64,000 nt of DNA from assembly GCA_934636245.1 (NCBI GenBank), contig CAKUAI010000014.1, positions 31,258 through 95,257 on the forward strand. Direction: 5' to 3'. This document shows positions 1-64,000 of the stretch, in pieces. Position 1 is the stretch's first letter. Each line of letters begins with the position of its first letter. The translations under genes were made by a program, and so were the position numbers. The notes under the pieces are model-generated. The model was not told the origin of the DNA, did no database searches, and worked only from the letters and a program-made list of their open reading frames with translations. The stretch comes from an uncultured Coriobacteriales bacterium. GTDB lineage: Bacteria > Actinomycetota > Coriobacteriia > Coriobacteriales > UMGS124.

Positions 1-63
1 CGACAATACAACCTCAGGGGTGATGTGCTTTTTAGCGTCCCATGCGCCCCACCGCACGAAAAA

Positions 64-92
64 GGCCCCGCGGGCGCGAAGCTCGCGGGGCC
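64..92. terminator. GC-rich hairpin GGCCCCGCG-N11-CGCGGGGCC just downstream of the minus-strand Fe-S gene
   Basis: Perfect 9-bp inverted repeat. The same structure recurs at 5624..5652 between convergent genes. There is no clear T-tract. Confidence 0.45.
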
Positions 93-163
93 TTGGGGAC
101 CGACCGGGGGTATGAGGGGGACGTCACGGCCGGCCCCACGTCAGGCGCCGAGGCGCCCAGGCC

Positions 164-793
164 TTACTGCATGGAGACGTCGCCGCCCTGCCAGGCCATG
201 CGGCGCAGGATGTAGACGCCCTGGGGCGCGTTGCCCTCGTCGTCCAGGCGGTAGAGGTCGCCCTCGGCGTACTCCTCCACGAAGTCGCCCAGGGTCTCGC
301 CGCGCGGGCCCTTGAAGGTCTCGATGCCCTCGTCGAGGTCGCCGTACCAGCGGGCCATGCCGCCGCACTGCGTGACGCACTGGGGCAGGCCGCCCTCGGA
401 GGTGATGCTCGCGCACAGGTCGCACTTCTCGGCGACGGAGGTGTCCACGTCGACGTAGCGGCAGCCGTAGGGGCAGGCCGTGAGGCACGCGCCGCAGCCG
501 ATGCACTGGTCGCGGTCGATCTGGACGGTGCCGTCCTCCTCGTTGATGCGCGAGGCGCCGGTGGGGCACACCGTCACGCACTCGGGGCTCGCGCAGTGCT
601 GGCAGGACACGGGCAGGAAGTACATGTCGACGTCGGGCCAGTTGCCGCCCTCCTGGCGGGGGAAGGGGCCCTGGCGCAGCACCTTGTTGCGGAAGGAGCC
701 GACGCGCACGTCGTTGACCGTCTTGCAGGCGACGATGCAGCCCAGGCAGCCGACGCAGCGGTTCAGGTCGGTGACGATAGTCTTGTGTGCCAT
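164..793 (-). CDS. 4x[4Fe-4S] ferredoxin-type electron-transfer subunit (DmsB/NrfC-like) of a molybdopterin oxidoreductase
   Basis: 209-aa ORF with Cys clusters CVGCLGCIVAC, CQHCASPECVTVCP, CIGCGACLTACP and CDLC...C. The ATG lies 3 nt after the stop of the upstream Mo-subunit gene. Confidence 0.9.
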   Translation of the reverse strand: MAHKTIVTDLNRCVGCLGCIVACKTVNDVRVGSFRNKVLRQGPFPRQEGGNWPDVDMYFLPVSCQHCASPECVTVCPTGASRINEEDGTVQIDRDQCIGCGACLTACPYGCRYVDVDTSVAEKCDLCASITSEGGLPQCVTQCGGMARWYGDLDEGIETFKGPRGETLGDFVEEYAEGDLYRLDDEGNAPQGVYILRRMAWQGGDVSMQ

Positions 794-796
794 CGC

Positions 797-3784
797 TTAC
801 GCCTCGTTTCGAATCTCGTAGTTGGGCATCCAGTCGAGCAGGCGCGGGTCGGAGGCGTCGCAGATGATGGGCGTGCCGTCTTCGCCGCAGGGCACCGGGT
901 TGCCGAAGGGGGAGTTCTCGGCCGTGGCCTTGTAGACCTTGACGTTGTAGGAGCGCAGGTAGGACGCGCCGCAGATGGGGTCCTGGTCGTCGGGGGTCAC
1001 CAGGCAGTTGATGGTGGACAGCTCGAAGCCGCCGCCGGCCTGGTCGAGCTCGGGGTACCACCACTGGTGCTCGCAGTTGATGACGCCGGGCTCCACGCCG
1101 TAGTACAGGTCCACGGTCTGGCGCACCTTGCCCTCCGGGCTCTCGATCCACACCCAGTCGCCCTGCCCCACGCCCAGCCTCTCGGCGTCGGCGGGGTTGA
1201 TCTCGCACTTGGGCACGGGCCACAGCTCGCGGCACCAGGGCAGCTGACGGTGCTCGGAGTGGAAGTACACCGGGATGCGGCGGCCGGTGGTCATGAGGAA
1301 CGGCCACTCCTCGACGATGGAGGGGTCGGCGAGCTCGGTGCGGGGCGCGGGCTCCCAGGAGGGAAGGTTGAACTTGCCCGAGGGCTCGTAGGTCTCCATG
1401 ACGGTGGACCAGAGCTCCTGCTTGCGGGTGGGCGTGGAGAAGCCCTTCATCGGGTTGCCGGCAGGCGTGAGACCCACAATCTTCGGCTCGCTCATCATGC
1501 CGGTCTCGTAGCGGCGGTACGTGCCCCAGACCTCGGGGTTGATCTCGCGGCAGTCCCACCAGCCGTGCTTCTGGAAGGCCTCCTTGTAGCCCTGCCAGTC
1601 AACGCCCATCGGGGCGACGACGCCCGAGAGCAGCGTCTCGACGTCGGGCCAGTAGTTGCCCTCGCCATAGCCCGAGGCGACCGGGTCGTCGCACCAATGC
1701 ACCCCCATGGCCTTGTACAGGTCGAGGACGATCTGCAGGTCGAACTTGCAGTCGGCGGGAGGCTCGATGCAGCAGCAGTTTGCACCCTGCGCACCGGTCG
1801 CGCCCTGCGAGAGGCGCGGGAAGTCGACCTCGAGCCAGTGGAGGACGGGCAGGATGATGTCGGCGGCGCCGGTCGTCGGGGTCTTCCACAGGTCCTGGAC
1901 CACAAAGAAGTCGAGGGCGTTGAGGGCGTCCCAGTACTTGAGGGAATTGCCCTGGTTCATGAAGCCGGAGGCCTCGCAGAGTCCACCGCGCACGGGGTAG
2001 GGGTCGCCCGTGAGGATTGCGTCGGCGACGGCGTTGGCATCGGCCCACTGCTGCCACCAAGACAAGGTCGGGATGCGATCATGGCCGAGGATCTTCTCAG
2101 GGAAGACGGAGAAGTCAACACCCTCGCCGTGCTCGGCGGCCAGAAGGGGCTGCGAGTCGTCCATGCGCTTGAACATGCCGCAGCTCGGGCCGCGCATGCC
2201 GGCGGGCGTGTCAAAGTTGCCGGTGATGCCGCAGAGGTTGTCGAGGGCGCGGTTGTTCTGAATGGCGTTGCAGGCGTGCTCGGCCGCGAGCATGTACTGC
2301 AGGCCGCCGTTACCGTACCCCGTGGAGGGGTCGATGGGCGTGGCCCAGGTGAGGGCGGCGTTGCGAATGTCGTCAGCCGAAACGCCGGTGATTTCCGCAG
2401 CAATCTCGGGCGTGAACTCATGGGCGCGAGCCGCATAGTGCTCCCAGACAGGCTTCATCTGGTAGGTTTTGCCGTCCTTGAGCGTGACCTCGAACTCGCC
2501 GTAGATGGCAGGGTCGATCTCGGGGTCGAACGGGCTCTGTTCGGCGATGCGGCCAGGGACCGTACCCTTGGGCAGGTTGGGCTGGGGGTTGTCGTAGAAC
2601 TTGTCCCACACGACGTCGGGCTCGTTCTCCCACAGGCCCGTCTGGGCATCGAAGTAGGTGAGGTGGCCGGAAGGGTCGTTCTCATGCAGCGGGTGGTCAG
2701 CGTCGGTGCCGGCAAGCTCGTCCCACACCATGAAGCGCTGGGGGCTGCCGCCCTCCTTGAGGTCGCACTCCTTGAGAAGGGTCGTGGACATCGTCTTGCA
2801 GAGGCTCCAGGCAATCTTATGCTGCACCGGCACTTCGCCGGAAGGCTCCATGCCGTCGACCACGAGGAAGGGGGCGTCGGTCCAGCGCTTCACGTACAGG
2901 TCGTTGTACAGCTTATTCTCGATGACGACATCGGTCCAGGCAAGAGCCAGTGCGCCGTCGGTGCCGGGCTTGAGGTACATGTGGATGTCGGCCTCGTGGC
3001 CCAGGTTGGTCATGCGCGGGTCGACGGAAATGTAGGCCTCGGCGGTCTTGGCAAGGTCAACCGTGGTACGGCAGCTCTCGTCGTAGTTGGAGATCTCGGA
3101 GGCGCCGCCCCAAGAGACGAAGACGCGGGGACGGTCGGTGGTGGCCATCCAGGAGTAGGAGTACTCCGAGACCATCATCGATGCCATGTGGCGCGGGCCC
3201 TTGCAGATCTGCCAGGCGGTCACCGCGTTGGGGCTTCCCGTCATCTGCAGCCACGCGGCATAGGCGTGCTGTGTCCAGATGCGGCTCGTGCCGCCCATGA
3301 AGAACAGCGACTCGGGGCCGTACTTGTCCATGAACTCATGGAACTTCTCGGCGATAGTGCCGTACGCCTCATCCCAGGAGATGCGCACCCAACCCGGGTC
3401 GGTGGAACCCTTGGGATTCGTGCGCTTCATGGGGTGGTAGACGCGGTTGGGATGATAGGCAGCCTGGATGGACGCCTGGCTCTTGGTGCAGCAGTTGCCC
3501 ATCGAATGGAACGCCGTCTCGGCGTCGCCCTCGACCTTGACCGCACGGCCGTCCTTCACGGTGACGATGACGCCGCACTCGTTCTTGCCGCAGGCGCGGC
3601 AGCAGGTGCGGACGAGCTTCACGCCGTCGCCCTGGTCGCCCATCTCGGTCTTGACAAGATCAGTCTTGTCGAGCGGAATCTCAGCAAGAGCGCTCAGGGG
3701 TGCGCTTGCAAAGGCCGCTGCCGCACCGGCGATTGCCGCCACTTTGGCAAACGTACGGCGCGTCATGCTTTTCTGCATGTCCAT
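797..3784 (-). CDS. Molybdopterin (bis-MGD, DMSO-reductase superfamily) oxidoreductase catalytic subunit, Tat-exported
   Basis: The ORF spans 797..3856. The preferred ATG is at 3784 (MDMQKSMTRRTFAKVAAIAGAAAAFA, a twin-arginine signal) with GGGAGG upstream. There is an N-terminal Cys motif CCRACGKNEC...C (FS0 cluster). The C-terminus resembles a molybdopterin-dinucleotide-binding domain (INPADAERLGVGQGDWVWIESPEGKV). Confidence 0.9.
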   Translation of the reverse strand: MDMQKSMTRRTFAKVAAIAGAAAAFASAPLSALAEIPLDKTDLVKTEMGDQGDGVKLVRTCCRACGKNECGVIVTVKDGRAVKVEGDAETAFHSMGNCCTKSQASIQAAYHPNRVYHPMKRTNPKGSTDPGWVRISWDEAYGTIAEKFHEFMDKYGPESLFFMGGTSRIWTQHAYAAWLQMTGSPNAVTAWQICKGPRHMASMMVSEYSYSWMATTDRPRVFVSWGGASEISNYDESCRTTVDLAKTAEAYISVDPRMTNLGHEADIHMYLKPGTDGALALAWTDVVIENKLYNDLYVKRWTDAPFLVVDGMEPSGEVPVQHKIAWSLCKTMSTTLLKECDLKEGGSPQRFMVWDELAGTDADHPLHENDPSGHLTYFDAQTGLWENEPDVVWDKFYDNPQPNLPKGTVPGRIAEQSPFDPEIDPAIYGEFEVTLKDGKTYQMKPVWEHYAARAHEFTPEIAAEITGVSADDIRNAALTWATPIDPSTGYGNGGLQYMLAAEHACNAIQNNRALDNLCGITGNFDTPAGMRGPSCGMFKRMDDSQPLLAAEHGEGVDFSVFPEKILGHDRIPTLSWWQQWADANAVADAILTGDPYPVRGGLCEASGFMNQGNSLKYWDALNALDFFVVQDLWKTPTTGAADIILPVLHWLEVDFPRLSQGATGAQGANCCCIEPPADCKFDLQIVLDLYKAMGVHWCDDPVASGYGEGNYWPDVETLLSGVVAPMGVDWQGYKEAFQKHGWWDCREINPEVWGTYRRYETGMMSEPKIVGLTPAGNPMKGFSTPTRKQELWSTVMETYEPSGKFNLPSWEPAPRTELADPSIVEEWPFLMTTGRRIPVYFHSEHRQLPWCRELWPVPKCEINPADAERLGVGQGDWVWIESPEGKVRQTVDLYYGVEPGVINCEHQWWYPELDQAGGGFELSTINCLVTPDDQDPICGASYLRSYNVKVYKATAENSPFGNPVPCGEDGTPIICDASDPRLLDWMPNYEIRNEA

Positions 3785-3891
3785 GTTCCTCCCTTGTGTT
3801 TCCTCTACGTCTTTGTGCATCCGAGGTCGTGCTCGGCGGCTGCACGGTGCAATCATTGACTACGCAGGGGGTCCGGGAGAACTTTCAGACT

Positions 3892-3963
3892 TATGGTTTG
3901 GTGTATGATTGGCGGCGCCAGGTGACCTGTCTGAAACCGTTCGGTTTTATGGGTTGACAGAAA
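3892..3963. promoter_or_regulatory. Two conserved intergenic islands: TATGGTTTGGTGTATGATT (3892..3910) and GTTTTATGGGTTGACAGAAA (3944..3963), separated by 33 nt
   Basis: These are the only alignable blocks between the two paralogous divergent intergenic regions (partner 9447..9531). The spacing is the same in both. The second island contains a TTGACA -35-like hexamer. Confidence 0.5.
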
Positions 3964-4010
3964 ACTCCCTGGTTACATGCGAATTTTTACCAAAGCACCT
4001 AAAAGGAACA

Positions 4011-5579
4011 ATGGAGATGCACGGCATGACTGAACAAAATGAGGCCAACGCCATGAACAGCGAAAGCAGCATCTCGGCGCTCGTACGACCCGATTTGTTG
4101 GGCTTCTCATTTCACCTGGCTTGGCTCTGCCTCTTCATATACAACGTGGTTCCCGGATTTGCCGGACGATCGGACCACAACATTGAGTTCGGCGTGTTCA
4201 ACCCCGTCTATTTTTACTCGATGGTCAGCCTCGTCGTCGTGCTTGGCTACGGAATCGCGAAGACAAAGAACTTCATGCACCTTGCGCGGTCGCGCGTTGG
4301 AGTTGTCGCGGCACCAGTTGCCTGCTCTCTTGGCACGCTCATCTACGCTCTCTCGGCATCGGGATTGACACCCGCCGCCCTCAACACCGCCCTGCTCGTT
4401 GTCGGCGGCATCCTGAGCGGCGCTGGCTCGGCGTTTTTGGCCGCACACTGGGCAAGCGCCTTCGGCCGGGCAAAGGCAAGGGCGTTCGTCGTCAACCTCC
4501 CGCTTATTTTTGCCGCCGTCCTTATCACGTGCCTGGCAATAACCTACGTCTTTGCCGCGATCGCGCTTGTGTTCGCCACGCTGCTCCCCCTAGCATCGGG
4601 CGGCTGCCTCATATATGCCGACCGCTATGCGGCGTCCCTGGCCGACCAGGCCCGCCCAGATACCGACAGAACCGAGTCGAAGCCTTCGCACTCCCGCCGC
4701 ATCTATTTGATACTCATCGCCGCCGTGTGCCTCATCGGCCTCACAACGGGAAGCCTCAACCAAATCAGGTCGATCAACGCGGGCTATTGTTTCGCCTTTT
4801 CATGCATCACTTCGGTGCTCATTCTCCTTATAACGGGCTGGCTTATTGTCCAAGACAATCCGAAGGCGTTTCTTCCCCTGTTCGTCGCGCCGCTCGTCGT
4901 TTTCCTCATTTTTGCACTGCCCCTCATCCGCTTCACTCCAAATGATGCGCCTGGTATCGTGTATGCCATAGGAAGCGTGACGCGTGAGCTTATGCTCATG
5001 TTCGAGGCAGTGCTGTTCGCGCTGCTCTTTGACTTGTCATGTGCCAAAACGTTCATGATCGGTCGAGTCGTCATGGCCCTGTCCGACCTCTGTGGTGCGC
5101 TGTGCGCGGCCGCCATCATGGAGCACCTGGGCAACCAGGCAGGTGCGCAGTTTGCAGGCGGCGTGCTTCTCGTTGGATCCGAGGTCATTATCGCAGGCCT
5201 GCTCATGATGTACCTGCTTCTTCGTCGCAAGTCTCTCGCCACGCCGTCGCTCAACACGCGTGCGGCCGGCGTAGATACAGCAGCCCAGGAGGCGACCACG
5301 CGCCCAGAAGACGCCGCGGACACATCGCAGCCAGATGAGAGCGCCGCATCGCAAAGCGAGATTGTGGCGAACCTCACCGCCGAGCGATTCGGCCTCTCCC
5401 CTCGCGAGGCCGACGTGCTGAGGCTGCTCGTCGCCGGCGAGTCAACCACTCAGATTCAAGACACGCTCTGCATCGCCCCCGGCACGTTCAACTACCACAT
5501 GCGCAACATCTACTCCAAGCTCGGCGTGCACTCCCGCCAGGAGCTGCTCGTTTTCATCTACAACCAGCCGGAACAATAA
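4011..5579 (+). CDS. Membrane-embedded LuxR/GerE-family transcriptional regulator (polytopic N-terminal sensor-like domain plus C-terminal HTH)
   Basis: The ORF spans 3909..5579; the preferred ATG is at 4011 after AAGGA. Many hydrophobic helices fill the first ~430 aa. The C-terminal HTH reads LSPREADVLRLLVAGESTTQIQDTLCIAPGTFNYHMRNIYSKLGVHSRQEL. Confidence 0.85.
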   Translation: MEMHGMTEQNEANAMNSESSISALVRPDLLGFSFHLAWLCLFIYNVVPGFAGRSDHNIEFGVFNPVYFYSMVSLVVVLGYGIAKTKNFMHLARSRVGVVAAPVACSLGTLIYALSASGLTPAALNTALLVVGGILSGAGSAFLAAHWASAFGRAKARAFVVNLPLIFAAVLITCLAITYVFAAIALVFATLLPLASGGCLIYADRYAASLADQARPDTDRTESKPSHSRRIYLILIAAVCLIGLTTGSLNQIRSINAGYCFAFSCITSVLILLITGWLIVQDNPKAFLPLFVAPLVVFLIFALPLIRFTPNDAPGIVYAIGSVTRELMLMFEAVLFALLFDLSCAKTFMIGRVVMALSDLCGALCAAAIMEHLGNQAGAQFAGGVLLVGSEVIIAGLLMMYLLLRRKSLATPSLNTRAAGVDTAAQEATTRPEDAADTSQPDESAASQSEIVANLTAERFGLSPREADVLRLLVAGESTTQIQDTLCIAPGTFNYHMRNIYSKLGVHSRQELLVFIYNQPEQ

Positions 5580-5623
5580 CGGCACACGCATCACATGGGC
5601 GATTTACGCCCCCAAACGCAAAC

Positions 5624-5652
5624 GGCCCCGCGGGCGCAAGGCTCGCGGGGCC
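5624..5652. terminator. Hairpin GGCCCCGCG-N11-CGCGGGGCC between the convergent LuxR (+) and Fe-S (-) genes
   Basis: Perfect 9-bp inverted repeat located between stop codons at 5579 and 5724. Confidence 0.5.
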
Positions 5653-5723
5653 GTGGGGGCCGACCGGGGGTATGAGGGGAACGTCACTGCCGGCCCCGTG
5701 TCAGGCGCCGAGGCGCCCGGGTC

Positions 5724-6353
5724 TTACTGCATCGAGACGTCGCCGCCCTGCCAGGCCATGTGGCGCAGGATGTAGACGCCCTGGGGGGCGTTGCCCTCGT
5801 CGTCCAGGCGGTAGAGGTCGTCGTCGGTGTAGGCCTCGACGAAGTCGCCCAGGGTCTCGCCGCGCGGGCCCTTGAAGGACTCGATGCCCTCGTCCAGGTC
5901 GCCGTACCAGCGGGCCATGCCGCCGCACTGCGTGACGCACTGGGGAAGCCCGCCCTCGGAGGTGATGGAGGCGCACAGGTCGCACTTCTCCGCCACCGAG
6001 GTGTCCACGTCGACGTAGCGGCAGCCGTAGGGGCAGGCCGTCAGGCACGCGCCGCAGCCGATGCACTGGTCGCGGTCGATCTGGACGGTGCCGTCCTCCT
6101 CGTTGATGCGCGAGGCGCCGGTGGGGCACACCGTCACGCACTCGGGGCTCGCGCAGTGCTGGCAGGACACGGGCAGGAAGTACATGTCGACGTCGGGCCA
6201 GTTGCCGCCCTCCTGGCGGGGGAAGGGGCCCTGGCGCAGCACCTTGTTGCGGAAGGAGCCGACGCGCACGTCGTTGACCGTCTTGCAGGCGACGATGCAG
6301 CCCAGGCAGCCGACGCAGCGGTTCAGGTCGGTGACGATAGTCTTGTGTGCCAT
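5724..6353 (-). CDS. 4x[4Fe-4S] ferredoxin-type subunit, paralogue of 164..793
   Basis: 209 aa. It differs from copy 1 at only a handful of C-terminal residues (for example EGIESFKG, EAYTDDDL, LRHMAW). Confidence 0.9.
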   Translation of the reverse strand: MAHKTIVTDLNRCVGCLGCIVACKTVNDVRVGSFRNKVLRQGPFPRQEGGNWPDVDMYFLPVSCQHCASPECVTVCPTGASRINEEDGTVQIDRDQCIGCGACLTACPYGCRYVDVDTSVAEKCDLCASITSEGGLPQCVTQCGGMARWYGDLDEGIESFKGPRGETLGDFVEAYTDDDLYRLDDEGNAPQGVYILRHMAWQGGDVSMQ

Positions 6354-6356
6354 CGC

Positions 6357-9338: not shown

Positions 9339-9446
9339 GTTCCTCCCTTTCAAATCACGTACATCGATATGCACCGGGCTAAACACCCGATGCGTGGACA
9401 AGACACATTTTTGCGCCAGCTCTGCTTTCGTTTAAACACATGTGCC

Positions 9447-9531
9447 TATGGTTTGGCGTATTGTTTGGTGTATCATTTACGGCGTATGCATGCCCATAAA
9501 CAACAGTAGAGTTTTTATGGGTTGACTGAAA
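9447..9531. promoter_or_regulatory. Conserved islands TATGGTTTGGCGTATTGTTTGGTGTATCATT (9447..9477; the 12-mer GTTTGGYGTATN is duplicated in tandem) and GTTTTTATGGGTTGACTGAAA (9511..9531), separated by 33 nt
   Basis: Paralogous footprint of 3892..3963. The surrounding intergenic sequence cannot be aligned. Confidence 0.5.
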
Positions 9532-11131: not shown

Positions 11132-11216
11132 CCCAACCATACACCCGTATGGGTGACTCGTCCCCCAGTTCAACCCTAGGATTGCAGCATCGCAACCACA
11201 TGAGGAGTTGATGAGG

Positions 11217-11957
11217 ATGAGCCAGATGGAAAACGACGAAATCGAGTGCGGCGACCCTGATTGCGGAGCGCAGGCAGCATGGCAGCCCGGCCCAACGCTG
11301 CAGGAATCGATTGCAAAGGCCGCAGGGCACCGCGATGCCGATGATGCCAAGGCTTTGGAGAAGCTGATGCAGCGCATGTCCACGCGACGCAGCTCCCTGC
11401 TGGGCATTCTTGACCTTTGCCGCGAGCCCCACGGCGCCGCCGAGGTCGATGCCTGCGTCGCTAAGCTGCAGGCGCACAATGCAAGCGTCTACGACGGGGC
11501 CGCGCTTTGCTCCATGCTGCAGCAGGCAGGCGCGCTTGAGACCGTGGCCGATGAAGACGAGACGGCCGACACCGACGACGAGCCCCAGATCGAGGTTGTC
11601 GACGGAGTCGAGTACCTGCGCCCGGCCAAGCCCGCTCAGAAGCTCTGGCGGACAACTGAGATTGGCCTTGCATACCTCGACAGCTTCGACCCGAAGGCCG
11701 ACCTTGCCCGCCTGCTGGCGGACGACGCCGCGTACATGGACATCTACCTGCGCGTGCTCGACATGTGCGCCGACAACGGCGGCACCACGACGCCCGCGCT
11801 TTCGGCTGCCATCGACAAGGACCCCCTCGTGCAGTTGCCGCGCTTCTTTGCCCAGCATTTCACCGAGCGTCTTGAGAAGGCCGGCGCAGTGGAATGGGAC
11901 GGTGCCTGGAAAATCACCGACTTGGGGCGCTCCTACCTTGAGGACGCATCGCACTAA
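11217..11957 (+). CDS. Hypothetical acidic cytoplasmic protein with two similar helical, possibly winged-helix-like halves
   Basis: The ORF spans 11208..11957. The ATG at 11217 lies 9 nt after GAGGAG. There is no signal peptide or TM segment. Internal similarity: LLGILDLCREPHGAAEVDACV resembles YLRVLDMCADNGGTTTPALSA. I recognised no family. Confidence 0.55.
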   Translation: MSQMENDEIECGDPDCGAQAAWQPGPTLQESIAKAAGHRDADDAKALEKLMQRMSTRRSSLLGILDLCREPHGAAEVDACVAKLQAHNASVYDGAALCSMLQQAGALETVADEDETADTDDEPQIEVVDGVEYLRPAKPAQKLWRTTEIGLAYLDSFDPKADLARLLADDAAYMDIYLRVLDMCADNGGTTTPALSAAIDKDPLVQLPRFFAQHFTERLEKAGAVEWDGAWKITDLGRSYLEDASH

Positions 11958-14081: not shown

Positions 14082-14099
14082 CGAGCCGCAGTTCAAGCC

Positions 14100-15725: not shown

Positions 15726-15936
15726 AAACTACCAGCTCAACAGCTCATACGACGCACAGTATGAGTCCAAATACCCATCAATACGACAGCCCGAGAGATG
15801 CCCCAAAGACCCCTATCGGCAATAGTCAAACCCGGCACGCCGCCGGCGCCGCCCAACGGTGGGCAGCGCACACAAGCATACCAGCATTGCGTCAAAAGCG
15901 GCAAAAAGAGCACCACGCATCTGAAAGGGGAAGCAA

Positions 15937-44987: not shown

Positions 44988-45000
44988 GCCACCCCTGAGC

Positions 45001-45474: not shown

Positions 45475-45534
45475 AGAGGAGCCTTTCGAGCGCAGGTGAA
45501 TCGAATAGCAGCTAAACAACAGTCAGTATAGCAT

Positions 45535-45665: not shown

Positions 45666-45707
45666 AACTCTAACAACCAGCACTTGCTAAAACGAAGGAG
45701 ACCAATC

Positions 45708-56322: not shown

Positions 56323-56447
56323 GCAATCAAGTAAATTAACAAAGTGTAACAATATTTTGAACCAAAAGGCAGCGGATGAATATCTCCGCTGCCTTTATTT
56401 ATACTATTCGTATATTAGGGGGGATCAAATCAAGCAGAGGAGCTCGA

Positions 56448-57080
56448 ATGGTCTCAGAAGAAGAGCTTTTTGCGCACGACACAGATTCGAACTTTGAGCG
56501 CCTTCGCATTGTCTCGGTGATGGACTGTTTGGCCGAGACAATGCCCTTCGACAAACTTACGGTAACTGCAATCTGTTCGCAAGCCAAGATCTCCCGCACA
56601 ACATTCTATCGTCTTTTTGATGATAAGTACGCTGCTGCTAACTGGTATGTACATCTCGTATCCCGTGTAGGGCACGTTGAATGTGGCCGGACGCTCTCTT
56701 GGCATGATGCCAGCGTTACAACATTGTCCGGTCTCGCCATGATGAAACACCTGCTTATGAGTACAAACGTATGTGCTGGTTACGACTCTTCTGAAAACAG
56801 CGGCATACGCTTGCGTATAAGCAGCCTTACTGAGACAGTAGTCCGGCGCCTGCACGCACAACCAGACGCCGAACTCGCTTTTCAAATTAAATTCTTTGCC
56901 CGCTCGGAGATACCCCTCGTGCGTGAATGGTATCGAGACAGCGACTCAATACCCGTCGAAGAAATGGCCCGTGCAATCGAATCTTGTGTCCCTCAGCGCC
57001 TACACGATCTCATTGCGCTGCCCAACGACCCCACAAAGGCCATGCCGCTTACATACCCTCGTTTAATGGCAAGTCTGTAA
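56448..57080 (+). CDS. TetR/AcrR-family transcriptional regulator
   Basis: The ORF spans 56376..57080; the ATG at 56448 follows GAGGAG. The HTH reads LTVTAICSQAKISRTTFYRLFDDKY. Lower GC. Confidence 0.78.
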   Translation: MVSEEELFAHDTDSNFERLRIVSVMDCLAETMPFDKLTVTAICSQAKISRTTFYRLFDDKYAAANWYVHLVSRVGHVECGRTLSWHDASVTTLSGLAMMKHLLMSTNVCAGYDSSENSGIRLRISSLTETVVRRLHAQPDAELAFQIKFFARSEIPLVREWYRDSDSIPVEEMARAIESCVPQRLHDLIALPNDPTKAMPLTYPRLMASL

Positions 57081-57100
57081 GGAGAAGGCCGCCGCACGGC

Positions 57101-57790
57101 TTACCGGCCGCCTCGCACACTGCCATGCATAACGACAAGGTTCTCCTCCTCCAAGGCACTTGTCGACAGGATTGCCACACCCTCAGCAGGCATATCCACC
57201 GCACCTGCTGGTAGCCTGCAAATGCCCTCGTCATGATTGACACATTCAACCCGCACGGTATATGGAGCATCGGCGACAATGTCAGTACGCGCCCATCCAT
57301 CATCGCCGCTCACGGCCTGCAGCGGCTTGACCTTTTTAAGGTTGTCATTATAGAAAAAGAGCGATGCGTTCGACAAAGGCCCGCCCGTCTCAGCGTCACA
57401 TACACGTACACAGGCGCGACGATTCGGCATAGGGGTTACCGATAAAGGAAGCGGGCGCATACCCAAAATCTCTTGATTCGAAATCACTTCCACACGCCAA
57501 GTGACTCCGCCGGCCTGACATGGGGCTTTGAGACCGAGCTCGAATGCAGCGCATGTCGCATCGTGTTCGAGCTCAGGCTCAACACATGCAATTACATTCC
57601 CCCGTTCGTCTTTCACTTGAACCTTGACTTCTCTAAGTGATCCACCGCCCAAACTCTTGATGCTTATATTGGCGCAAAATGCCGAGCCGGCGACGAGAGG
57701 ATTCCGCACGCCCCATACCACGACGCCAACCTTTGAAGCCTTGGCGGCTTTTTCCTGTTGCGCCTTTTGAGATGCTTTTTGAGATTCCAC
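57101..57790 (-). CDS. Hypothetical protein with two predicted beta-sandwich domains and no signal peptide
   Basis: 229 aa with a Lys/Gln-rich N-terminus. The second half (VRVCDAETGGPLSNASLFFYN...GWARTDIVADAPYTVRVE) resembles carboxypeptidase-regulatory-like domains. It lies 135 nt downstream of the reductase gene on the same strand. Confidence 0.5.
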   Translation of the reverse strand: MESQKASQKAQQEKAAKASKVGVVVWGVRNPLVAGSAFCANISIKSLGGGSLREVKVQVKDERGNVIACVEPELEHDATCAAFELGLKAPCQAGGVTWRVEVISNQEILGMRPLPLSVTPMPNRRACVRVCDAETGGPLSNASLFFYNDNLKKVKPLQAVSGDDGWARTDIVADAPYTVRVECVNHDEGICRLPAGAVDMPAEGVAILSTSALEEENLVVMHGSVRGGR

Positions 57791-57925
57791 GCTGGACTCC
57801 TTTCAGTCAGATATGCCGACGTTCATGTGCCGTCGGCACTGCCTCGCAAAAAATGGGGTCACCGCAAGACAGCGCGGTGACCCCATTGTCAGGGATAGCT
57901 CTATGTCACAGGGGGATGTGTATGC

Positions 57926-60013
57926 CTAGAGCTGAATACGCTTGAGCCCCTCGGGGTTCTGCGACTCCTCGTGAGTCTCTCCCCAGTTCTCATAAGGGGT
58001 CGTATCAATAATGGCAATATCAGGCGTCGTCTCGTTCTTCATGTAGCTGCCGTCTGCCGCTTCATTCATGTAGCGCTCGGAATTTGCCTGCATAGCAGCC
58101 TCGTTGGCCGCCTTGGCCTCATCAGAAAGATCGTCATAGGTCACAGGAGAGCCGATTGCGGAACGAGCCGCCAGGAAACCACCGATACCCGACATGGCCA
58201 CGCCTCCCGCAAATGAGGGGTTGCCAAACTGGCCGGCATAGCAGCACTCGCCACAGATGCCGCCAGCAGTGTAGAAGCCGGCATACAAACCAGGGATGGG
58301 GTTCGCGTTTGCGTCGAGAACCTCCATCTCGCCGTTTACGCGCAGGCCAGCAATGATCTTGCCGATCTGGCCAGCGCAGGGAATGCAGTAGAACGGCGGC
58401 TTCTGCACGGGAACAAGCCAATCCGGGAAGTACTGGGGGGTGAAGTCAGAGTCATCACCCGTGGCAACATGTTCGTTCCACTCGTCGACAGCGGCAACGA
58501 ACTTATCGACATCAAGGCCAGCCTTCTCGGCAAGCTCCTCAAGCGTGTCCGCCTTAAGAACAGCACCGCGCTCGACGGCCTTCTCGAACTCGCCCGTCCA
58601 ATCAGTGGAGACATAAGGAGTCTCAGGCGTGCCGTCGCCCTCATGCACGGGGATACGGGCGCGATCAGCACCGGTGTGGGCGCTCTTGAAGTTCCAAAGG
58701 TTCACGCGGAAGTCATCATCAAAGATGCTGTAGTTGCGGTTACCAATGGAGCTCATCCACGCAGCATTATTGGGCAGGTCACCCATGGACTGCGTCATAA
58801 CGTCAAAGCCAGGCTGAAACTCCTCGCCAGGCTTGAAGTTAACGCCCGAGCCACAGTAGTAAGGAAGGCGCTTGCAGGCCTTGTCGAGCAGGAGCCACGG
58901 GTTCTTGGCAACCTGGCGCTCGCCACTCCAGAAGTAATGCCAGTAGTTGCCGTCGCCAGTGCCCCAGTACTCGTCAGCCGCGCCGTCCCAGCAATCCCAA
59001 GAATCGAAGCCCGACACATCGGCACCCAAAGCAAGTGCCATGCGGAAACACTCGCCGGTAGCCCAGGGCATGGGGCCACCCTGCGTGGCCTCCATGTAAG
59101 CCGTGGGGCAATACTGCTCGAGCAGATCCTGGTTCATGCCGAAGCAACCGGCAGTAAGAATAACGCCCTTCTCACCCTTATAGTAGGCAGTCCCGCCCTC
59201 GGGAGTCTTCACCTGAATACCGATGACACGACCATCGGCAACAACAAGTGCAGTGCACTCGGTCTTGGTGAAAAGCTGACCACCAGCCTCCTGGGTGTGC
59301 TCAGCAAGAAGCTCAAGCGCAGGCTGGTTGCCCAGCAGCGTGGAAACGGTGCCCGCGGCAATATCGGGATACGCAAAGCGCGACTTCACGTTGACCCATC
59401 CGGGCTTCTGAGTATCCTGCATCCAGTCAAGCCAAACGGCATTACCAATAACGCAAGAACGCAGCAGGTCCAGGTTGATAGTCTGCTGGTAAACGTTGTT
59501 AAGCTTGTTCACGATATCGTGAATGCTATAAGTATCGCCCGGCCAAGCGTAACCATTGAGAATCTGCTCACGGCTGCCACCAACAAGGGCCACGTTGATG
59601 GCCGAGTGGGCCGAAGCACCGCCAATCTCAGCGTTCTTCTCGACAATGACCGTGCGCAGACCCGCCTGAGAAGCGACCGTGGAGGCAGTCAGGCCGCCCA
59701 TACCAGTGCCGACTACGACCACATCGGCCTCAATGTCCCAGCTCTCCGGCGCCTCGACAGGCATGATAGGCATCGCGTCGGGACCAACATAACCCGTGGT
59801 CTGAGGCAGCGGGTGGCCAGTGTGGGGCTCGGGACGACGGCGCCCGCCCGACACAATGTTAAATCCACCAATCTGAACGCCTTCAGCAGGAACTGCAGCC
59901 TGCGCATCGACAGCTTCCTCGGCACGAGCTGTAGCCGTAACGGCCGCGCCCGTGACGACGCTTGCCGCGATTGCTGCGCCCTGAACAAAGGTACGACGAG
60001 ACACATCTTCCAT
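57926..60013 (-). CDS. Tat-exported FAD-dependent oxidoreductase (FAD_binding_2 family, long form)
   Basis: The N-terminus is MEDVSRRTFVQGAAIAASVVTGAAVTATARA. The dinucleotide fold is DVVVVGTGMGGLTAST. The C-terminal signature is GLYAGFYTAGG. 695 aa. Confidence 0.85.
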   Translation of the reverse strand: MEDVSRRTFVQGAAIAASVVTGAAVTATARAEEAVDAQAAVPAEGVQIGGFNIVSGGRRRPEPHTGHPLPQTTGYVGPDAMPIMPVEAPESWDIEADVVVVGTGMGGLTASTVASQAGLRTVIVEKNAEIGGASAHSAINVALVGGSREQILNGYAWPGDTYSIHDIVNKLNNVYQQTINLDLLRSCVIGNAVWLDWMQDTQKPGWVNVKSRFAYPDIAAGTVSTLLGNQPALELLAEHTQEAGGQLFTKTECTALVVADGRVIGIQVKTPEGGTAYYKGEKGVILTAGCFGMNQDLLEQYCPTAYMEATQGGPMPWATGECFRMALALGADVSGFDSWDCWDGAADEYWGTGDGNYWHYFWSGERQVAKNPWLLLDKACKRLPYYCGSGVNFKPGEEFQPGFDVMTQSMGDLPNNAAWMSSIGNRNYSIFDDDFRVNLWNFKSAHTGADRARIPVHEGDGTPETPYVSTDWTGEFEKAVERGAVLKADTLEELAEKAGLDVDKFVAAVDEWNEHVATGDDSDFTPQYFPDWLVPVQKPPFYCIPCAGQIGKIIAGLRVNGEMEVLDANANPIPGLYAGFYTAGGICGECCYAGQFGNPSFAGGVAMSGIGGFLAARSAIGSPVTYDDLSDEAKAANEAAMQANSERYMNEAADGSYMKNETTPDIAIIDTTPYENWGETHEESQNPEGLKRIQL

Positions 60014-60316: not shown

Positions 60317-61831
60317 CTACTCGCCTTCGGCGGTGTCGGTGGAAGACCCTCCGGTCTCCCCGGCACCGCCTTCGCTGCCGCCGGTCGAACCAGAGTCGCC
60401 CGCACCAGTGTCCGGCGCCTCAGCGCCACCACCCGACCCGCCAGCCTCTCCAGAACCGCCGGTCTCCCCAGAGCCGCCCGCGCCCTCCGACCCGGAGCCG
60501 GCGCCGGCGCCGCCGGTCTCGCCGGAACCCTCGCCGCCCGTGGTGCCGCCGGTGCCGCCGGCGCCAGGCTCGGGCACGGTACCGCCCGTCTCGCCGCCGG
60601 TCCCACCACCGGTTTCCGTGCCAGTGCCGGGTTGCGTGGGCTCGGAGGGCACCGTCGTTCCGCCCGTCTCGCCCGAATCTCCGGGCACCTCGTCCGACCA
60701 GCCATAATCCGCGCCGCCGTCGTAGCTGTAGTCGGGCGTGAAGAACACGCCGGGCTCGTCGTAGTCAAAGGCGTACTGCGCACCGCCCGCCGCATTGATC
60801 GCATCTTGGACGCCCTGCGCTGTGGCGTTGGCCTGCTCCACGCCCTCGTTGCCGTTCGTCGCGACATACACCGCGCGCGACACGTCTGCAATGACCGAAA
60901 CGCCCAGGTAGTTGTCGATGCCCTCTGTCATCACGACAAGCACGTAGGAGTGAGCCGCCAGCACGATGCCGCCGTCGTGCTCGGCCTGGTTGAGCTCGCC
61001 GGTCTTATGCGCCACCTGGACGCCCGCAGGGATGGCGTCGGTGAGACCTGCGTCGATGGTCTGCTGCAGCAGGAAGCTCATGGCGAGCTCGCTCATCTGC
61101 TCGTTCACCAGCTTGCCCGAGGCGATGAGGTTCAGGATGGTCGCCGCGTCGTCGGAGGTCATGCGGTTGCGCATGCCCTGGTCGGCCGCCACCATATCCA
61201 TCATCTTGCGCGCCATGACGGTGCCCGTGAGGCCGAGCTTGCTCGCCTCCTCGTTGACCGCGTCCATTCCGATGAGGTCGACGATGACGTTGGTGGCCGT
61301 GTTGTCGCTGTCGGCAATCATGCGACGGGCAAGTTCGCGCAGCTCATAGGTGCCAGGCCCGTCGTCTTGCACCGTACCCGTGCCCGAAACGATGTCCGAG
61401 GCCTTGACCTCCACCTGGGCGGCGAGGTCAACCTCCCCCGCGGCCACCTTGTCGAACAGCGCCGCCAACACGACCAGCTTGATCATGCTTGCAGAGGCGT
61501 GCTGGGTCGCGCCGTTCACGCTCACGATGCCGGCGGGCATGCCCACGGGAAGATACGTGACCGAGACGGTCTCGCCATAAGGCGCGGTCACCTGCTCGAT
61601 GGCCTGGCGGATGGCAGCACTGACGCGCTCGACATCGGCCGTATTGTGGGCAACCGCTGCCTGGCGAATGGTGTCAACCGCAGAAACAGAGTCCTGCTCC
61701 GCGGCGTTGATGGAAGAGCCCACAGCAGACGTGGACGTCGCCTGATCGGTATCGCTCGCATCGGTGCCGCACCCTGCCAGGAAAAGCAGGCAGCAACCCG
61801 CGAGCACGCAGGGAAGCGCACGATGCATCAT
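60317..61831 (-). CDS. Lipoprotein-type class A beta-lactamase-like serine hydrolase with a ~130-aa Gly/Glu/Thr/Ser-rich C-terminal tail
   Basis: The ORF spans 60317..61900; the likely start is at 61831 (MMHRALPCVLAGCCLLFLAGC lipobox). Motifs: SMIK (SxxK), SDN, KTG. The tail is made of GGTGGETGG/GSGETGG-type units. Confidence 0.75.
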   Translation of the reverse strand: MMHRALPCVLAGCCLLFLAGCGTDASDTDQATSTSAVGSSINAAEQDSVSAVDTIRQAAVAHNTADVERVSAAIRQAIEQVTAPYGETVSVTYLPVGMPAGIVSVNGATQHASASMIKLVVLAALFDKVAAGEVDLAAQVEVKASDIVSGTGTVQDDGPGTYELRELARRMIADSDNTATNVIVDLIGMDAVNEEASKLGLTGTVMARKMMDMVAADQGMRNRMTSDDAATILNLIASGKLVNEQMSELAMSFLLQQTIDAGLTDAIPAGVQVAHKTGELNQAEHDGGIVLAAHSYVLVVMTEGIDNYLGVSVIADVSRAVYVATNGNEGVEQANATAQGVQDAINAAGGAQYAFDYDEPGVFFTPDYSYDGGADYGWSDEVPGDSGETGGTTVPSEPTQPGTGTETGGGTGGETGGTVPEPGAGGTGGTTGGEGSGETGGAGAGSGSEGAGGSGETGGSGEAGGSGGGAEAPDTGAGDSGSTGGSEGGAGETGGSSTDTAEGE

Positions 61832-62029
61832 CCGCCGCGCGCTCCGCAAGATTCTGCTTGTCCCTACTGTCTCGCCCTGTATCGACATGCCATCTCCCAC
61901 CTAATACAGGCGGCCCCACGTCAAGTCACCGCGGGGCCGCCGTCTCAGTTTTAGAAGTGGGTATTATCCTGTGCTCGCATGGCAAGGTGGAAGAGGAGAT
62001 TCAATTTCATCTAATAAGGAAAGCCCCCA

Positions 62030-62707
62030 TCAAGCAGCAATCTCCTCATGCAAAAGTTCGATGTTCCCAGGCTCTTCGCCAATAAACGCACCCGTCAATT
62101 TCAACACGCCGCGATAAAAGCGCGTTTGGACAATCCTAGACGCAAGAGCTTGGAAATCTGTGTACCAACTCGTCACATGCTCTGCCAAGAAGCTCCGTTG
62201 CTTGTCGAGAACCTCGATTGCCCCGGAGGTGTCCCCACAACGAACACACTCGATAGCCCTGTCGCACAGAAGCGCCAGATAATCGAACATAAACGAAAGA
62301 TGGTCCTCGGGAACATCAAGGCCCGCGGGAACCCTAACGCGGTTTGCCTTGAACTCCCCGTATACCTCGCCTTGCGGCGCGCCCATGAGTTGTGCCCCGC
62401 CAAAGCGAAAGAGCGACTCATAGGGCATGGCAGTGCGGCCCTCGACGATGATCGTGCCATAGAACGTGGATGTGAAGTCGCATGCAAGCTCCTCACGCGT
62501 TCCCGTGTTGCGGCGGCGCAGGTAGCGCGCAATATCGTTGCATCCCTCATCGCAAGCATCTGCGCCGGCCCGGGCTGCCTCGGCAAACCCAGACACCACG
62601 AGAGCGTCAATCTCCTCTTGCGTCAGTGGCTTGAAGAACAGCCGCGCAAGCAGGCGATACGTACCCCCGCGCTCTTCCAGCATGCCAATAATCTCATCGT
62701 TGTTCAT
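62030..62707 (-). CDS. TorD/DmsD-family redox-enzyme maturation chaperone
   Basis: The ORF spans 62030..62725; the ATG at 62707 follows GGGAAGG. The sequence is YRLLARLFFKPLTQEEIDAL...MPYESLF...PEDHLSFMFDYLALL. Confidence 0.8.
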   Translation of the reverse strand: MNNDEIIGMLEERGGTYRLLARLFFKPLTQEEIDALVVSGFAEAARAGADACDEGCNDIARYLRRRNTGTREELACDFTSTFYGTIIVEGRTAMPYESLFRFGGAQLMGAPQGEVYGEFKANRVRVPAGLDVPEDHLSFMFDYLALLCDRAIECVRCGDTSGAIEVLDKQRSFLAEHVTSWYTDFQALASRIVQTRFYRGVLKLTGAFIGEEPGNIELLHEEIAA

Positions 62708-62757
62708 TCTCGTTTGCCTTCCCACCGCTTCAGGCCGTTTTCAGCCCGGGTACCGTC

Positions 62758-63345
62758 CTAGCACTCACCCGTCCACGAGGCATACTTGGGTGAGAGGATA
62801 TAACGCGTCACCGGATGCGCACCCGTCTCGTCAGCCAACTCGTGGATGCAGTCCTCGCCGTATCGCGCCATTTCGCGGCATACGTCGCTATCTGGATCGT
62901 CGAAGTCTCCAAAGAAGCGCGCCCCACAGTTGCAGTTGTGCACGCAGGCCGGAACGTCGCTGCCGTCGGCCGTGAGCTCATGGCACAGAGTGCACTTGCG
63001 CACGATGCCCGCGTCCTCGTCGACTTGGCGCGCATCGAACGGACAGGCCGTGACGCACAGACCGCAACCGATGCATGCGTCGGTGTCCACCATCACATAA
63101 CCCGTCTCGTCCTCGCGGAACGAGGCACCCGTGGGACACACCTCGATGCAAGGGGCGTTCTCGCACTGCTGGCACTGCACGGGAAGCCAGTATTTCTCAA
63201 CGTTGGGGAATGTTCCGAAGGGCCCCATCGCCTTCACCTTGTTGTATGCCGAACCCAGGGGTAGGCTGTGCTCAAGTTTGCAACACACCACACATGAGTC
63301 GCACCCAGAGCAGCGATCGAGGTTGATAAGCAGTCCCTTGCGCAT
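62758..63345 (-). CDS. 4x[4Fe-4S] ferredoxin-type subunit (DmsB-like) of a third molybdopterin oxidoreductase
   Basis: Cys clusters CSGCDSCVVCC, CQQCENAPCIEVCP, CIGCGLCVTACP and CTLC...C. The ATG directly abuts the TAA of the upstream gene. Confidence 0.9.
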   Translation of the reverse strand: MRKGLLINLDRCSGCDSCVVCCKLEHSLPLGSAYNKVKAMGPFGTFPNVEKYWLPVQCQQCENAPCIEVCPTGASFREDETGYVMVDTDACIGCGLCVTACPFDARQVDEDAGIVRKCTLCHELTADGSDVPACVHNCNCGARFFGDFDDPDSDVCREMARYGEDCIHELADETGAHPVTRYILSPKYASWTGEC

Positions 63346-64000
63346 TTAGAACACCTCCGGGCTGGTCGGCTCGCCCTGCAGAGTGGGCATGAACGGTCCA
63401 AACTCCTTGGCCTGCGTCCACACACGCTCGGGCTTCTCGCTCTTCTCAATCTTTACCGTGAACGCTCGGTAGCTGTTCGTGGCAAAGGCGGGGTTCTGGA
63501 ACGAATCGGCAGACAGACAGTTGTAGCCGCACTCCTCGATACCGGGCGTAATGGACTCTTGCGTGTCGTCGAAGCACTCGGGGTTCCAAAAGCGCTCGGT
63601 AAGCAGCACGCCAGGAGCAATGCCCTGCGTCACCTGCGCCATGGCATGCGTACTCGCACGGCGAGAAGTCACCTTCACCCAGTCGCCGTCAGCAATGCCG
63701 TACTCATCGGCGGTCTGGGGGTTGATGCGCAGAAGAGGCGCAGGCATGAGCTCGCGGATGAACGGGGCATGGCGCATTGTGCCGTGATGGAAATGCGGCA
63801 GGCGGCCCGTGGTGATGACGAGCGGGTACTCATCATCGGTCAACGGGCTTTCCGTGGGCTCGTTGAACGTGCAGATGGGATCGTAATCCTCGCATGCCTC
63901 CTGCTCAAAGGGATACATGTAGGGGAAGCCCGTGCGAGCAAGACGCAGCATGGCCTCACAGTACACATCCACCTTGCGCGACATCGTGGCAAAGCCGCGT
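63346..64000 (-). CDS. Molybdopterin oxidoreductase catalytic subunit, C-terminal part only (5' end beyond the window)
   Basis: The reading frame stays open to position 64000. The molybdopterin-dinucleotide-binding-like segment reads PLVITTGRLPHFHHG...INPQTADEYGIADGDWVKVTSRRAS. Confidence 0.85.
   Translation of the reverse strand, partial: RGFATMSRKVDVYCEAMLRLARTGFPYMYPFEQEACEDYDPICTFNEPTESPLTDDEYPLVITTGRLPHFHHGTMRHAPFIRELMPAPLLRINPQTADEYGIADGDWVKVTSRRASTHAMAQVTQGIAPGVLLTERFWNPECFDDTQESITPGIEECGYNCLSADSFQNPAFATNSYRAFTVKIEKSEKPERVWTQAKEFGPFMPTLQGEPTSPEVF

Follow-up and report, generated by a model that had tools for sequence, protein, structure and literature searches.

Why should one stretch of a gut bacterial genome hold one exported reductase after another, most of them facing a regulator of their own? 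The question is raised by 64,000 nucleotides of DNA from an uncultured Coriobacteriales bacterium of the lineage UMGS124 (GenBank assembly GCA_934636245.1, contig CAKUAI010000014.1, positions 31,258 to 95,257), which we call the window. About eleven reductase units lie in these 64 kb: eight flavoproteins (FAD1-FAD8) with an export signal of the twin-arginine translocation (Tat) pathway, and three operons (A, B and C) for molybdenum (Mo) enzymes of the bis-molybdopterin guanine dinucleotide (bis-MGD) type. In our reading, which we consider well founded and quite probable, the window belongs to a flexible reductase island, built from self-contained sensor/reductase modules, in the genome of an uncultured human-gut Eggerthellaceae. 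The architecture itself has already been described; what the window provides is a set of new, uncharacterised members in an uncultured lineage.

Genomes classified as "high-reductase" contain 30-103 flavin or Mo reductases with signal peptides each (Little et al., bioRxiv 10.1101/2022.12.26.521950). From these numbers, and assuming a genome of about 3.5 Mb, we estimate that roughly 1-2 reductase units should be expected per 64 kb. With about eleven, the reductase genes of the window stand closer together than would be expected even of a "high-reductase" genome. As the G+C content of the window is high (54-68%), long spurious open reading frames (ORFs) are common, and the reading frames were therefore chosen by third-position GC. 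About 48 candidate genes were then scanned against Pfam. In addition, an Rfam scan of the whole window gave zero matches at the gathering threshold.

The flavoproteins are the most numerous part of the array. An initial annotation of the window, made from the letters alone, had listed eight FAD_binding_2 paralogues, three bis-MGD operons and six polytopic membrane LuxR regulators. Pfam confirms the domains of all three groups, and the start coordinates of the annotation prove to be correct nearly everywhere. FAD_binding_2 (E 6e-25 to 4e-50) is present in eight proteins and no more, with the starts given there. In all eight flavoproteins a twin-arginine motif, S/T-R-R-x-F/L/M, is found inside the first 25 residues, with an Ala-rich h-region and then an AxA site behind it; all eight are predicted to be exported. 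Their pairwise identity is 22-31%, and they are old paralogues.

FAD1 (15937-17583, plus strand; SRRNFV; FAD_binding_2 1.1e-30) also matches the Pfam TAT_signal model, and FAD2 (17867-19546, plus; SRRSFV; 1.9e-32) follows it in the same direction, with no regulator of its own. FAD3 (22781-24337, minus; SRRDML; 5.7e-28) has as its best PDB matches the soluble flavocytochrome c3 fumarate reductase of Shewanella and the urocanate reductase UrdA. Immediately upstream of it is a gene for a membrane-anchored tri-haem cytochrome c (24383-24946, minus; Cytochrom_c3_2 1.6e-5), with three CxxCH motifs and one transmembrane (TM) segment. This is the sole ORF in the window with multiple CxxCH motifs, and its product is the likely electron donor to FAD3, in an arrangement like that of Cgr1/Cgr2. 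FAD4 (28136-30193, minus; TRRSLL; 1.9e-34) has a second domain, FMN_bind (2.6e-15). This domain occupies residues 610-682, at the C-terminal end and behind a linker of some 45 residues, whereas in urocanate and fumarate reductases it is N-terminal. The remaining four are FAD5 (34828-36738, minus; SRRDFL; 5.8e-25), FAD6 (39838-41424, plus; SRRSFV; 3.9e-50), FAD7 (42925-44508, minus; SRRNFI; 8.7e-36) and FAD8 (57926-60013, minus; SRRTFV; 3.6e-26). FAD5 is directly followed on its strand by an ORF of 304 codons (33752-34666) with good coding statistics, in which neither a Pfam domain nor a haem motif was found.

None of the eight belongs to a housekeeping family by the NCBIfam cut-offs: against the SdhA, FrdA and NadB models they score 25-52 bits, with cut-offs of about 450-570 (25-52 against 567 for TIGR01812, 38 against 453 for nadB). 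Further, no curated cut-off of an NCBIfam equivalog model is reached by any of the eight, nor by the catalytic subunit of operon A. The best partial matches of the flavoproteins are to flavocytochrome c, to dehydrogenases of the 3-ketosteroid-delta-1-dehydrogenase (KstD) type and to vinyl-phenol reductase. The last of these, VprA (NF053717), is the closest curated family of FAD6, at 312 bits and well under the cut-off of 600. When functional names were sought for the flavoproteins and the Mo enzymes, by look-up of exact-sequence clusters and by large homology searches, only generic ones were returned ("FAD-binding protein", "molybdopterin-dependent oxidoreductase"), and these searches linked no module by name to Cgr2, Dadh, Hcdh, Cadh or UrdA.

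Of the three Mo operons in the initial annotation, A and B are complete, while only the 3' part of C falls within the window. Operon A consists of the catalytic subunit Mo_A (797-3784, minus; about 995 residues) and the 4Fe-4S subunit Fe4S_A (164-793, minus; Fer4_11 2.8e-22), and operon B of Mo_B (6357-9338, minus; about 995 residues) and Fe4S_B (5724-6353, minus; Fer4_11). Both catalytic subunits have the domains Molybdop_Fe4S4, Molybdopterin and Molydop_binding and the Tat motif TRRTFAK. Of Mo_C the last 212 or so residues (63346-64000, minus; Molydop_binding 4.3e-19) are present before the window ends; next to it are Fe4S_C (62758-63345, minus; Fer4_11 2e-21) and a TorD-like chaperone (62030-62725, minus; Nitrate_red_del 3.1e-20). 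In all three operons the Fer4_11 protein is encoded directly downstream of the catalytic gene. The part of operon C beyond the window can be read from contigs with an identical Fe-S protein (loci L040-L042): it contains a complete catalytic subunit of 958 residues with the motif TRRSFLK, a homologue of 255 residues of the accessory protein described below, and a divergent polytopic GerE protein of 501 residues (LuxR7). The best PDB match of Mo_A is acetylene hydratase (2e7z, 1.7e-50), with 175 bits against 107 for the next; for Mo_C acetylene hydratase is ahead of PsrA by a margin only (108.6 against 105.9 bits). Acetylene hydratase is reported to be the closest relative of the gut catechol dehydroxylases (bioRxiv 10.1101/725358).

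Two further genes close the A/B cluster. One encodes a TorD/NarJ-like chaperone of Mo enzymes (12057-12917, plus; Nitrate_red_del 1.7e-34). The other encodes an accessory protein without a Pfam family (11208-11957, plus), which matches by BLASTP (2e-11) the 255-residue protein upstream of Mo_C (L040:5198-5965). Members of this accessory family have about 250 residues and a C-terminal WDGAWK motif, and accompany a TorD-like chaperone in both Mo clusters. In relatives, too, the accessory gene is conserved beside TorD. It is probably the "hypothetical" protein needed for dehydroxylase maturation, as the pair is placed at one end of the Mo cluster in the same way as in Eggerthella dehydroxylase clusters.

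Six genes encode the polytopic LuxR proteins, at the starts given in the initial annotation. Each has a C-terminal GerE domain (2e-12 to 2e-16) and 8-11 hydrophobic segments, counted on Kyte-Doolittle hydropathy, and all are placed head-to-head with a reductase gene: LuxR1 with Mo_A (4011-5579, plus; GerE 3.8e-16; 11 segments), LuxR2 with Mo_B (9566-11131, plus; 3.4e-16; 10), LuxR3 with FAD1 (14100-15725, minus; 3.2e-14; 10), LuxR4 with the cytochrome c-FAD3 pair (25174-26682, plus; 3.9e-13; 10), LuxR5 with FAD4 (30617-32080, plus; 2.3e-12; 8) and LuxR6 with FAD5 (37107-38642, plus; 2.4e-16; 11). Membrane segments are thus present in every one of them, and a structural model of LuxR1, discussed below, contains twelve helices.

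The annotation further proposed that most units have a private adjacent regulator. This stands for the six LuxR proteins and for the LysR-type regulator (38667-39572, minus; HTH_1 and LysR_substrate), which is divergent from FAD6. It does not extend to FAD2 and FAD8, and the regulator of operon C is located outside the window. The MerR-family protein (41941-42819, minus; MerR_1 5.1e-13) is confirmed as such, but it lies immediately 3' of FAD7 on the same strand, and upstream of FAD7, again on that strand, is an Rrf2-family regulator (45001-45519, minus; Rrf2 1.1e-30) that was absent from the earlier list. Finally, the TetR at 56448 had been given as a private regulator. The protein (56448-57080, plus) is at best a possible TetR-like helix-turn-helix (HTH) protein: TetR_N scores 21.7 bits with a cut-off of 24, the best PDB match has E = 0.07, and the gene record in L040 carries no Pfam domain. 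As a sensor for FAD8 it was rejected, since the match is below threshold and a convergent ORF of 229 codons separates it from FAD8.

Is the pairing of sensor and reductase kept elsewhere? The order of a LuxR gene divergent from a Mo gene, followed by the Fe-S gene, is conserved in 12 compared loci from several Eggerthellaceae genera, and in about 8 of the 12 TorD and accessory genes are found beside the LuxR gene. Between orthologous loci the Mo catalytic subunit is 72-97% identical, against 29-77% for the neighbouring LuxR (stretches 3909-5579 and 9566-11131 compared with loci L001-L013). Judged from these identities, the LuxR sensors evolve much faster than their cognate enzymes.

What such a pairing does is known from related systems. 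The LuxR family with 10-12 TM segments was defined by Dong et al. 2022 (PMC9734109). Three of its members, DadR, HcdR and CadR, have 12 TM segments and activate a divergent dehydroxylase on its substrate, as established by deletion and complementation; in all three the TM and the DNA-binding domain are both required, and knock-outs abolish the induction of the neighbouring enzyme only, with no cross-regulation. Eggerthella lenta has 83 such regulators, 19 of them beside Mo enzymes and 50 beside flavoenzymes (PMC9734109). In the same species 64 reductase genes neighbour TM regulators and, according to RNA-seq, are induced by substrates; a reductase is switched on by the electron acceptor that it uses, and such enzymes sustain growth by respiration (bioRxiv 10.1101/2022.12.26.521950). 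The layout of the window, stated in the initial annotation to be known for Eggerthellaceae, matches both studies, and the substrate-inducible one-sensor/one-reductase logic proposed there is supported by analogy with the genetics of DadR, HcdR and CadR.

By the same analogy, a module of the window would operate in the following way. Its core would be a Tat-exported reductase, either an FAD enzyme of the flavocytochrome c/urocanate reductase type or an acetylene-hydratase-related bis-MGD enzyme with its 4Fe-4S subunit. In six modules, and in a seventh just outside the window, this is accompanied by a putative divergent activator in which a membrane domain of 10-12 helices is joined to a cytoplasmic LuxR/GerE domain. 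The membrane domain would detect an extracellular organic substrate, and the tethered DNA-binding domain would then activate the adjacent promoter, and probably its own promoter too. The exported reductase would use the detected compound as an electron acceptor, with electrons coming from the membrane via the Fe-S subunit (Mo enzymes), the tri-haem cytochrome c (FAD3), the FMN-binding domain (FAD4) or further partners (the other flavoproteins).

The closest comparison of two modules is offered by the window itself. Operons A and B form a tandem duplication of 5.55 kb (56-3795 against 5616-9349, 88.7% nucleotide identity), and their divergence is strongly mosaic. The Fe-S subunits are 97% identical in amino acids, while Mo_A and Mo_B are 84.5-86% identical, with variable patches at residues 450-600 (approximately) and 700-750. 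LuxR1 and LuxR2 are 54% identical overall, about 50% in the membrane domains and 86% at the DNA-binding end. At synonymous positions the membrane domain is near saturation (proportion of synonymous differences, pS, 0.64-0.82), against a pS of 0.19 for the DNA-binding end. Mo_B is 96.7% identical to the single copy in a sister locus from UMGS124 (L001), and by this comparison Mo_B/LuxR2 is the ancestral copy and Mo_A/LuxR1 an extra copy in the host lineage. The duplication also contains a block of about 900 nucleotides that is 100% identical (roughly 501-1400 against 6061-6960) within sequence of otherwise 82-92% identity. It runs from the 3' end of the catalytic gene into the Fe-S gene, of which it takes in the 5' half, and is either a recent gene conversion or an artefact of the metagenome assembly.

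The DNA between the divergent genes is also partly conserved. In the LuxR1/Mo_A intergenic region (3892-3958) a footprint of six sequences gives the conserved boxes TATGGTTTGGTGTAT and TTTATGGGTTGAC, and the LuxR2/Mo_B region (9447-9526) has two copies of GTTTGGYGTAT and an inverted repeat, CCCATAAA-N13-TTTATGGG. Common to both duplicated promoters are the invariant boxes GTCAACCCATAAA and ATACACCAAACCATAG. Over six related loci the boxes TATGGTTTGGYGTAT and TTTATGGGTTGAC are invariant, together with the inverted CCCATAAA partner in copy B. These boxes are candidates for the LuxR operator and promoter elements. Because the boxes are shared and the DNA-binding domains are nearly identical, each regulator might, hypothetically, activate both promoters A and B. 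In an inverted-repeat scan of the six LuxR/reductase intergenic regions, no motif in common was found beyond the A/B pair.

Does respiration explain the array best? The rival explanation that survives best is that the modules detoxify or co-metabolise xenobiotics and host compounds, as was first proposed for Cgr2 and digoxin, that they conserve no energy, and that their induction is protective. The arrangement of cytochrome c, flavoprotein and LuxR at 22781-26682 resembles that of Cgr1/Cgr2, regulators of the MerR and TetR-like kinds are typically seen in drug responses, and neither Mo_A nor Mo_B has a gene for a quinol-oxidising membrane subunit beside it. However, a benefit for ATP or growth from such acceptors has been published for E. 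lenta and Gordonibacter, and Tat export combined with Fe-S, haem or FMN relay domains is a hallmark of respiratory-type reductases. We regard detoxification without energy conservation as unlikely, although the two readings are not mutually exclusive.

Several observations do not sit easily with an island of self-contained respiratory modules. A gene for a third, membrane-anchor subunit is not found beside operons A and B: from Fe4S_B to the end of LuxR1 there are only about 145 nucleotides, and homologous sequence follows Fe4S_A. Neither is there an anchor gene after the Fe-S gene in L001, and what comes next after Fe4S_C in operon C is the gene of the TorD-like chaperone and not an anchor gene. 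The Mo operons therefore fit the three-subunit definition of "Eggerthella-type" enzymes (PMC11887054) only in part. Further, five flavoproteins are without an obvious electron-donor partner, and FAD2, FAD7 and FAD8 are without a clear private sensor, FAD7 being flanked on one strand by Rrf2 (upstream) and MerR (downstream).

A second rival concerns the direction of the chemistry. Some or all of the flavoproteins could be oxidative enzymes, KstD-like 3-ketosteroid or other C-C dehydrogenases, in which case "reductase" would be a misnomer for part of the array. KstD models are among the best partial NCBIfam matches of FAD1, FAD7 and FAD8, and KstD structures are among the PDB matches. In an approximate paralogue alignment, moreover, the His/Arg positions typical of fumarate and urocanate reductases, placed after the Shewanella flavocytochrome c3 motifs, are apparently not conserved. 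Against this, the KstD scores of 81-146 bits are far under the cut-offs of 788-793, all eight proteins are predicted to be Tat-exported, like respiratory reductases, and the characterised Eggerthellaceae paralogues Cgr2, Cber, UrdA and Crd are reductases; we find an oxidative role quite improbable. That adjacency is a mere by-product of two abundant families, with the LuxR proteins acting on other targets or globally, can be set aside almost entirely: both families are hugely expanded in Eggerthellaceae, and the near-identical DNA-binding ends and boxes of LuxR1 and LuxR2 mean that regulation need not be strictly one-to-one, but all seven LuxR genes (six in the window, one outside) stand head-to-head with a reductase operon, the LuxR/Mo pairing and the boxes are conserved in related loci, and the three published knock-outs each lost the induction of the neighbouring enzyme alone (PMC9734109).

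Returning to the sensor/reductase modules, how could the membrane domain recognise a ligand? The initial annotation held that the polytopic LuxR domain has no characterised ligand mechanism. Dong et al. 2022 agree, stating the sensing mechanism of the 10-12-TM family to be unclear (PMC9734109), and in the searchable literature we found nothing relevant on its mechanism from later years. LuxR1 was modelled with AlphaFold2 from an alignment of 31 sequences, with a mean pLDDT of 75 (80-92 across most of the membrane part) and a pTM of 0.68. The model predicts twelve helices in a 6+6 arrangement, with a disordered loop in the centre (214-226), then a disordered linker (407-445) and the HTH domain. 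In the model, 18 Lys/Arg residues are located in the predicted cytoplasmic loops and 3 outside. This positive-inside bias fits an N-in/C-in topology, in which the DNA-binding domain would be cytoplasmic.

When the LuxR1 model is compared with PDB structures by Foldseek, the top 50 matches are all transporters of the major facilitator superfamily (MFS), with E of about 3e-4 and target-normalised TM-scores of 0.40-0.53; they include MelB, G6PT, FLVCR1, VGLUT2, VMAT1/2, NorA, DgoT and LacY. If the domain has this fold, the ligand would be expected in the central cavity, with a lobe of six helices on either side, and the DNA-binding domain would receive a conformational change like that of a transporter.

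The fold assignment has to be weighed against several results that do not favour it. It comes from one model, and the TM-scores are modest; the model of the flavin-associated LuxR3 has a pLDDT of 53, too poor for use. Searching Pfam with the TM domain gave no match at E up to 10, and its profile against PDB sequences found the HTH only. No repeat between the N-terminal and C-terminal halves was detectable by hhalign (probability 0.5%). An exhaustive profile search among 1.84 billion representatives returned 218 at E <= 1e-3, which in length and in the positions matched are consistent with a sensor at the N-terminus that is extended at the C-terminus; among ten remote relatives of the TM domain that were scanned, six have GerE, and neither MFS_1 nor any other Pfam domain was found. 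By sequence the TM domain is an orphan family.

Taken together, a diverged MFS-transporter fold that acts as a "transceptor" is a lead, to which we give not quite an even chance. In the searchable literature we found no mention of an MFS-like reading of these sensors. Somewhat more tentative, so that we lean slightly against it, is the joint proposal of an MFS-fold transceptor with its ligand in the central cavity and a rocker-switch relay, in which LuxR1 and LuxR2 would be a natural specificity swap and possibly an OR gate. In the latter case two ligands may converge on both promoters, instead of acting through two insulated circuits.

To which organism do these modules belong? In a collection of species-representative genomes, all relatives of Mo_A are Coriobacteriales. 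The window is 98.5-100% identical to uncultured metagenome-assembled genomes derived from Hadza individuals (for L003, 100% in protein by tblastn and 98.5% in DNA by blastn), and identical proteins are encoded on human-gut metagenome contigs, from the Hadza and from others. Among cultured relatives, the closest to Mo_A and Mo_B, at 74-75%, are from Eggerthella sinensis, E. guodeyinii and Gordonibacter sp. An230. Hence the host is an uncultured gut Coriobacteriales lineage, and neither E. lenta nor a cultured Eggerthella or Gordonibacter. Among the best 120 relatives of Mo_A that were listed, none has a functional name, and the closest named ones are given only as generic "molybdopterin oxidoreductase". 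The best 120 listed for FAD3 include no source-named protein called Cgr2, most of them being without a name; the closest are from uncultured Eggerthellaceae, Adlercreutzia and Gordonibacter.

The content of the island is not constant between close relatives. The sister locus L001 (4128-5230) has flanks that are 90-93% identical to the window, and lacks 14084-21011 (LuxR3-FAD1-FAD2-MGMT) as well as the Mo_A/LuxR1 copy. Modules are gained, lost and duplicated as units, and after duplication it is the membrane domain of the sensor that diverges fastest.

Composition and repeats also vary along the window. The G+C fraction is 0.53-0.55 over 22000-26000 (cytochrome c-FAD3-LuxR4) and over 56000-58000 (the TetR-like gene and the 229-codon ORF), and 0.58-0.68 elsewhere. 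The low stretches may be of foreign origin, yet the sister locus has the cytochrome c-FAD3 module at 95-98% identity. Three copies of an AT-rich element, each about 125 nucleotides long, are present (41561-41685, 44875-44999 and 46773-46897), two of them between convergent 3' ends and one upstream of FAD7. The 13-mer AACATACATTTCA occurs three times in each copy, which makes 9 matches where 0.02 would be expected, and two of the three form a perfect palindrome with arms of about 17 bp. None of the 42 other loci compared has the element, and it has no match in Rfam. One copy adjoins a stretch of 146 nucleotides after FAD6 (41706-41851), which is 83% identical to 46920-47065, the 3' end of a HAD hydrolase gene (46926-47729, minus). 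This stretch looks like the relic of a gene at a junction of segmental duplication or recombination between modules.

Two neighbouring genes may be mentioned here. Divergent from the Rrf2 regulator is a gene for a protein of 354 residues with two SnoaL-like domains (45558-46622), which may represent a further small-molecule-transforming module, one without a reductase. Between operon C and FAD8, on the same strand, a protein of 527 residues with a Beta-lactamase2 domain (6e-56) is encoded at 60317-61900; in the gene order of L040, FAD8 is downstream of operon C and of this gene, all on one strand.

What becomes of drugs, neurotransmitters and dietary polyphenols in the gut is decided by the reductases of Eggerthellaceae, most of which are orphans. 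To these the window contributes eleven enzymes, again orphans, together with seven sensors, all from a lineage without a cultured representative, and it extends the repertoire beyond E. lenta and Gordonibacter. Because the specificities of sensor and enzyme go together in the cases characterised so far, each LuxR-promoter pair could be used as a reporter for deorphanising its enzyme. Further, the duplicated Mo_A and Mo_B modules, together with the hint of a transporter-like fold, offer handles on how membrane regulators recognise their ligands.

How do the parts of the window compare with known systems? With MFS transporters such as MelB, LacY, VMAT, NorA and G6PT, and with "transceptors", the modelled LuxR1 domain shares the predicted twelve helices in a 6+6 arrangement, the central cytoplasmic loop and the N-in/C-in topology. 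It differs from them in having no sequence similarity and no identified motif A, and in its fusion to a DNA-binding domain. The flavoproteins share PF00890 and a signal peptide with the Eggerthellaceae flavin reductases (UrdA, Crd/Cir and those for itaconate, shikimate and resveratrol), and, as in those arsenals, there are many paralogues (22-31% identical here), neighbouring TM regulators and one paralogue with FMN_bind. The FAD3 module has in common with Cgr1/Cgr2 of E. lenta the multi-haem cytochrome c gene directly upstream of a Tat flavoprotein (24946-22781) and the divergent polytopic LuxR (25174-26682); it is most likely analogous in architecture and not a digoxin reductase.

The Mo enzymes resemble the Eggerthella-type catechol dehydroxylases Dadh, Hcdh, Cadh, eCadh and Vadh (Maini Rekdal 2019/2020; PMC11887054), which are likewise Tat-exported, acetylene-hydratase-related bis-MGD proteins of about 1000 residues, with an adjacent 4Fe-4S subunit, a divergent private LuxR and genes for a hypothetical protein and TorD, in a hot spot of duplication. 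The hypervariable dehydroxylase clusters described by Dong et al. 2025 (PMC11887054), who used 75% identity to a characterised dehydroxylase as a threshold, have the same plan: a private divergent regulator for each enzyme, the hypothetical and TorD genes at one end of the cluster, and hot spots of duplication. In contrast to the Eggerthella-type enzymes, no membrane-anchor gene lies alongside operon A, B or C. Finally, the regulators agree with DadR, HcdR and CadR in the C-terminal GerE domain, the polytopic N-terminus of about 400 residues, the divergence from a Mo or flavin reductase gene, and the low identity of the TM domains among paralogues whose DNA-binding domains are conserved. The likeness to these three is one of architecture, and in the tandem pair of the window the DNA-binding domain and the boxes are kept while the sensor domains have diverged. 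What the window adds to the published architecture is the A/B tandem duplication, the turnover of modules, the shared boxes and, tentatively, the fold of the sensor.

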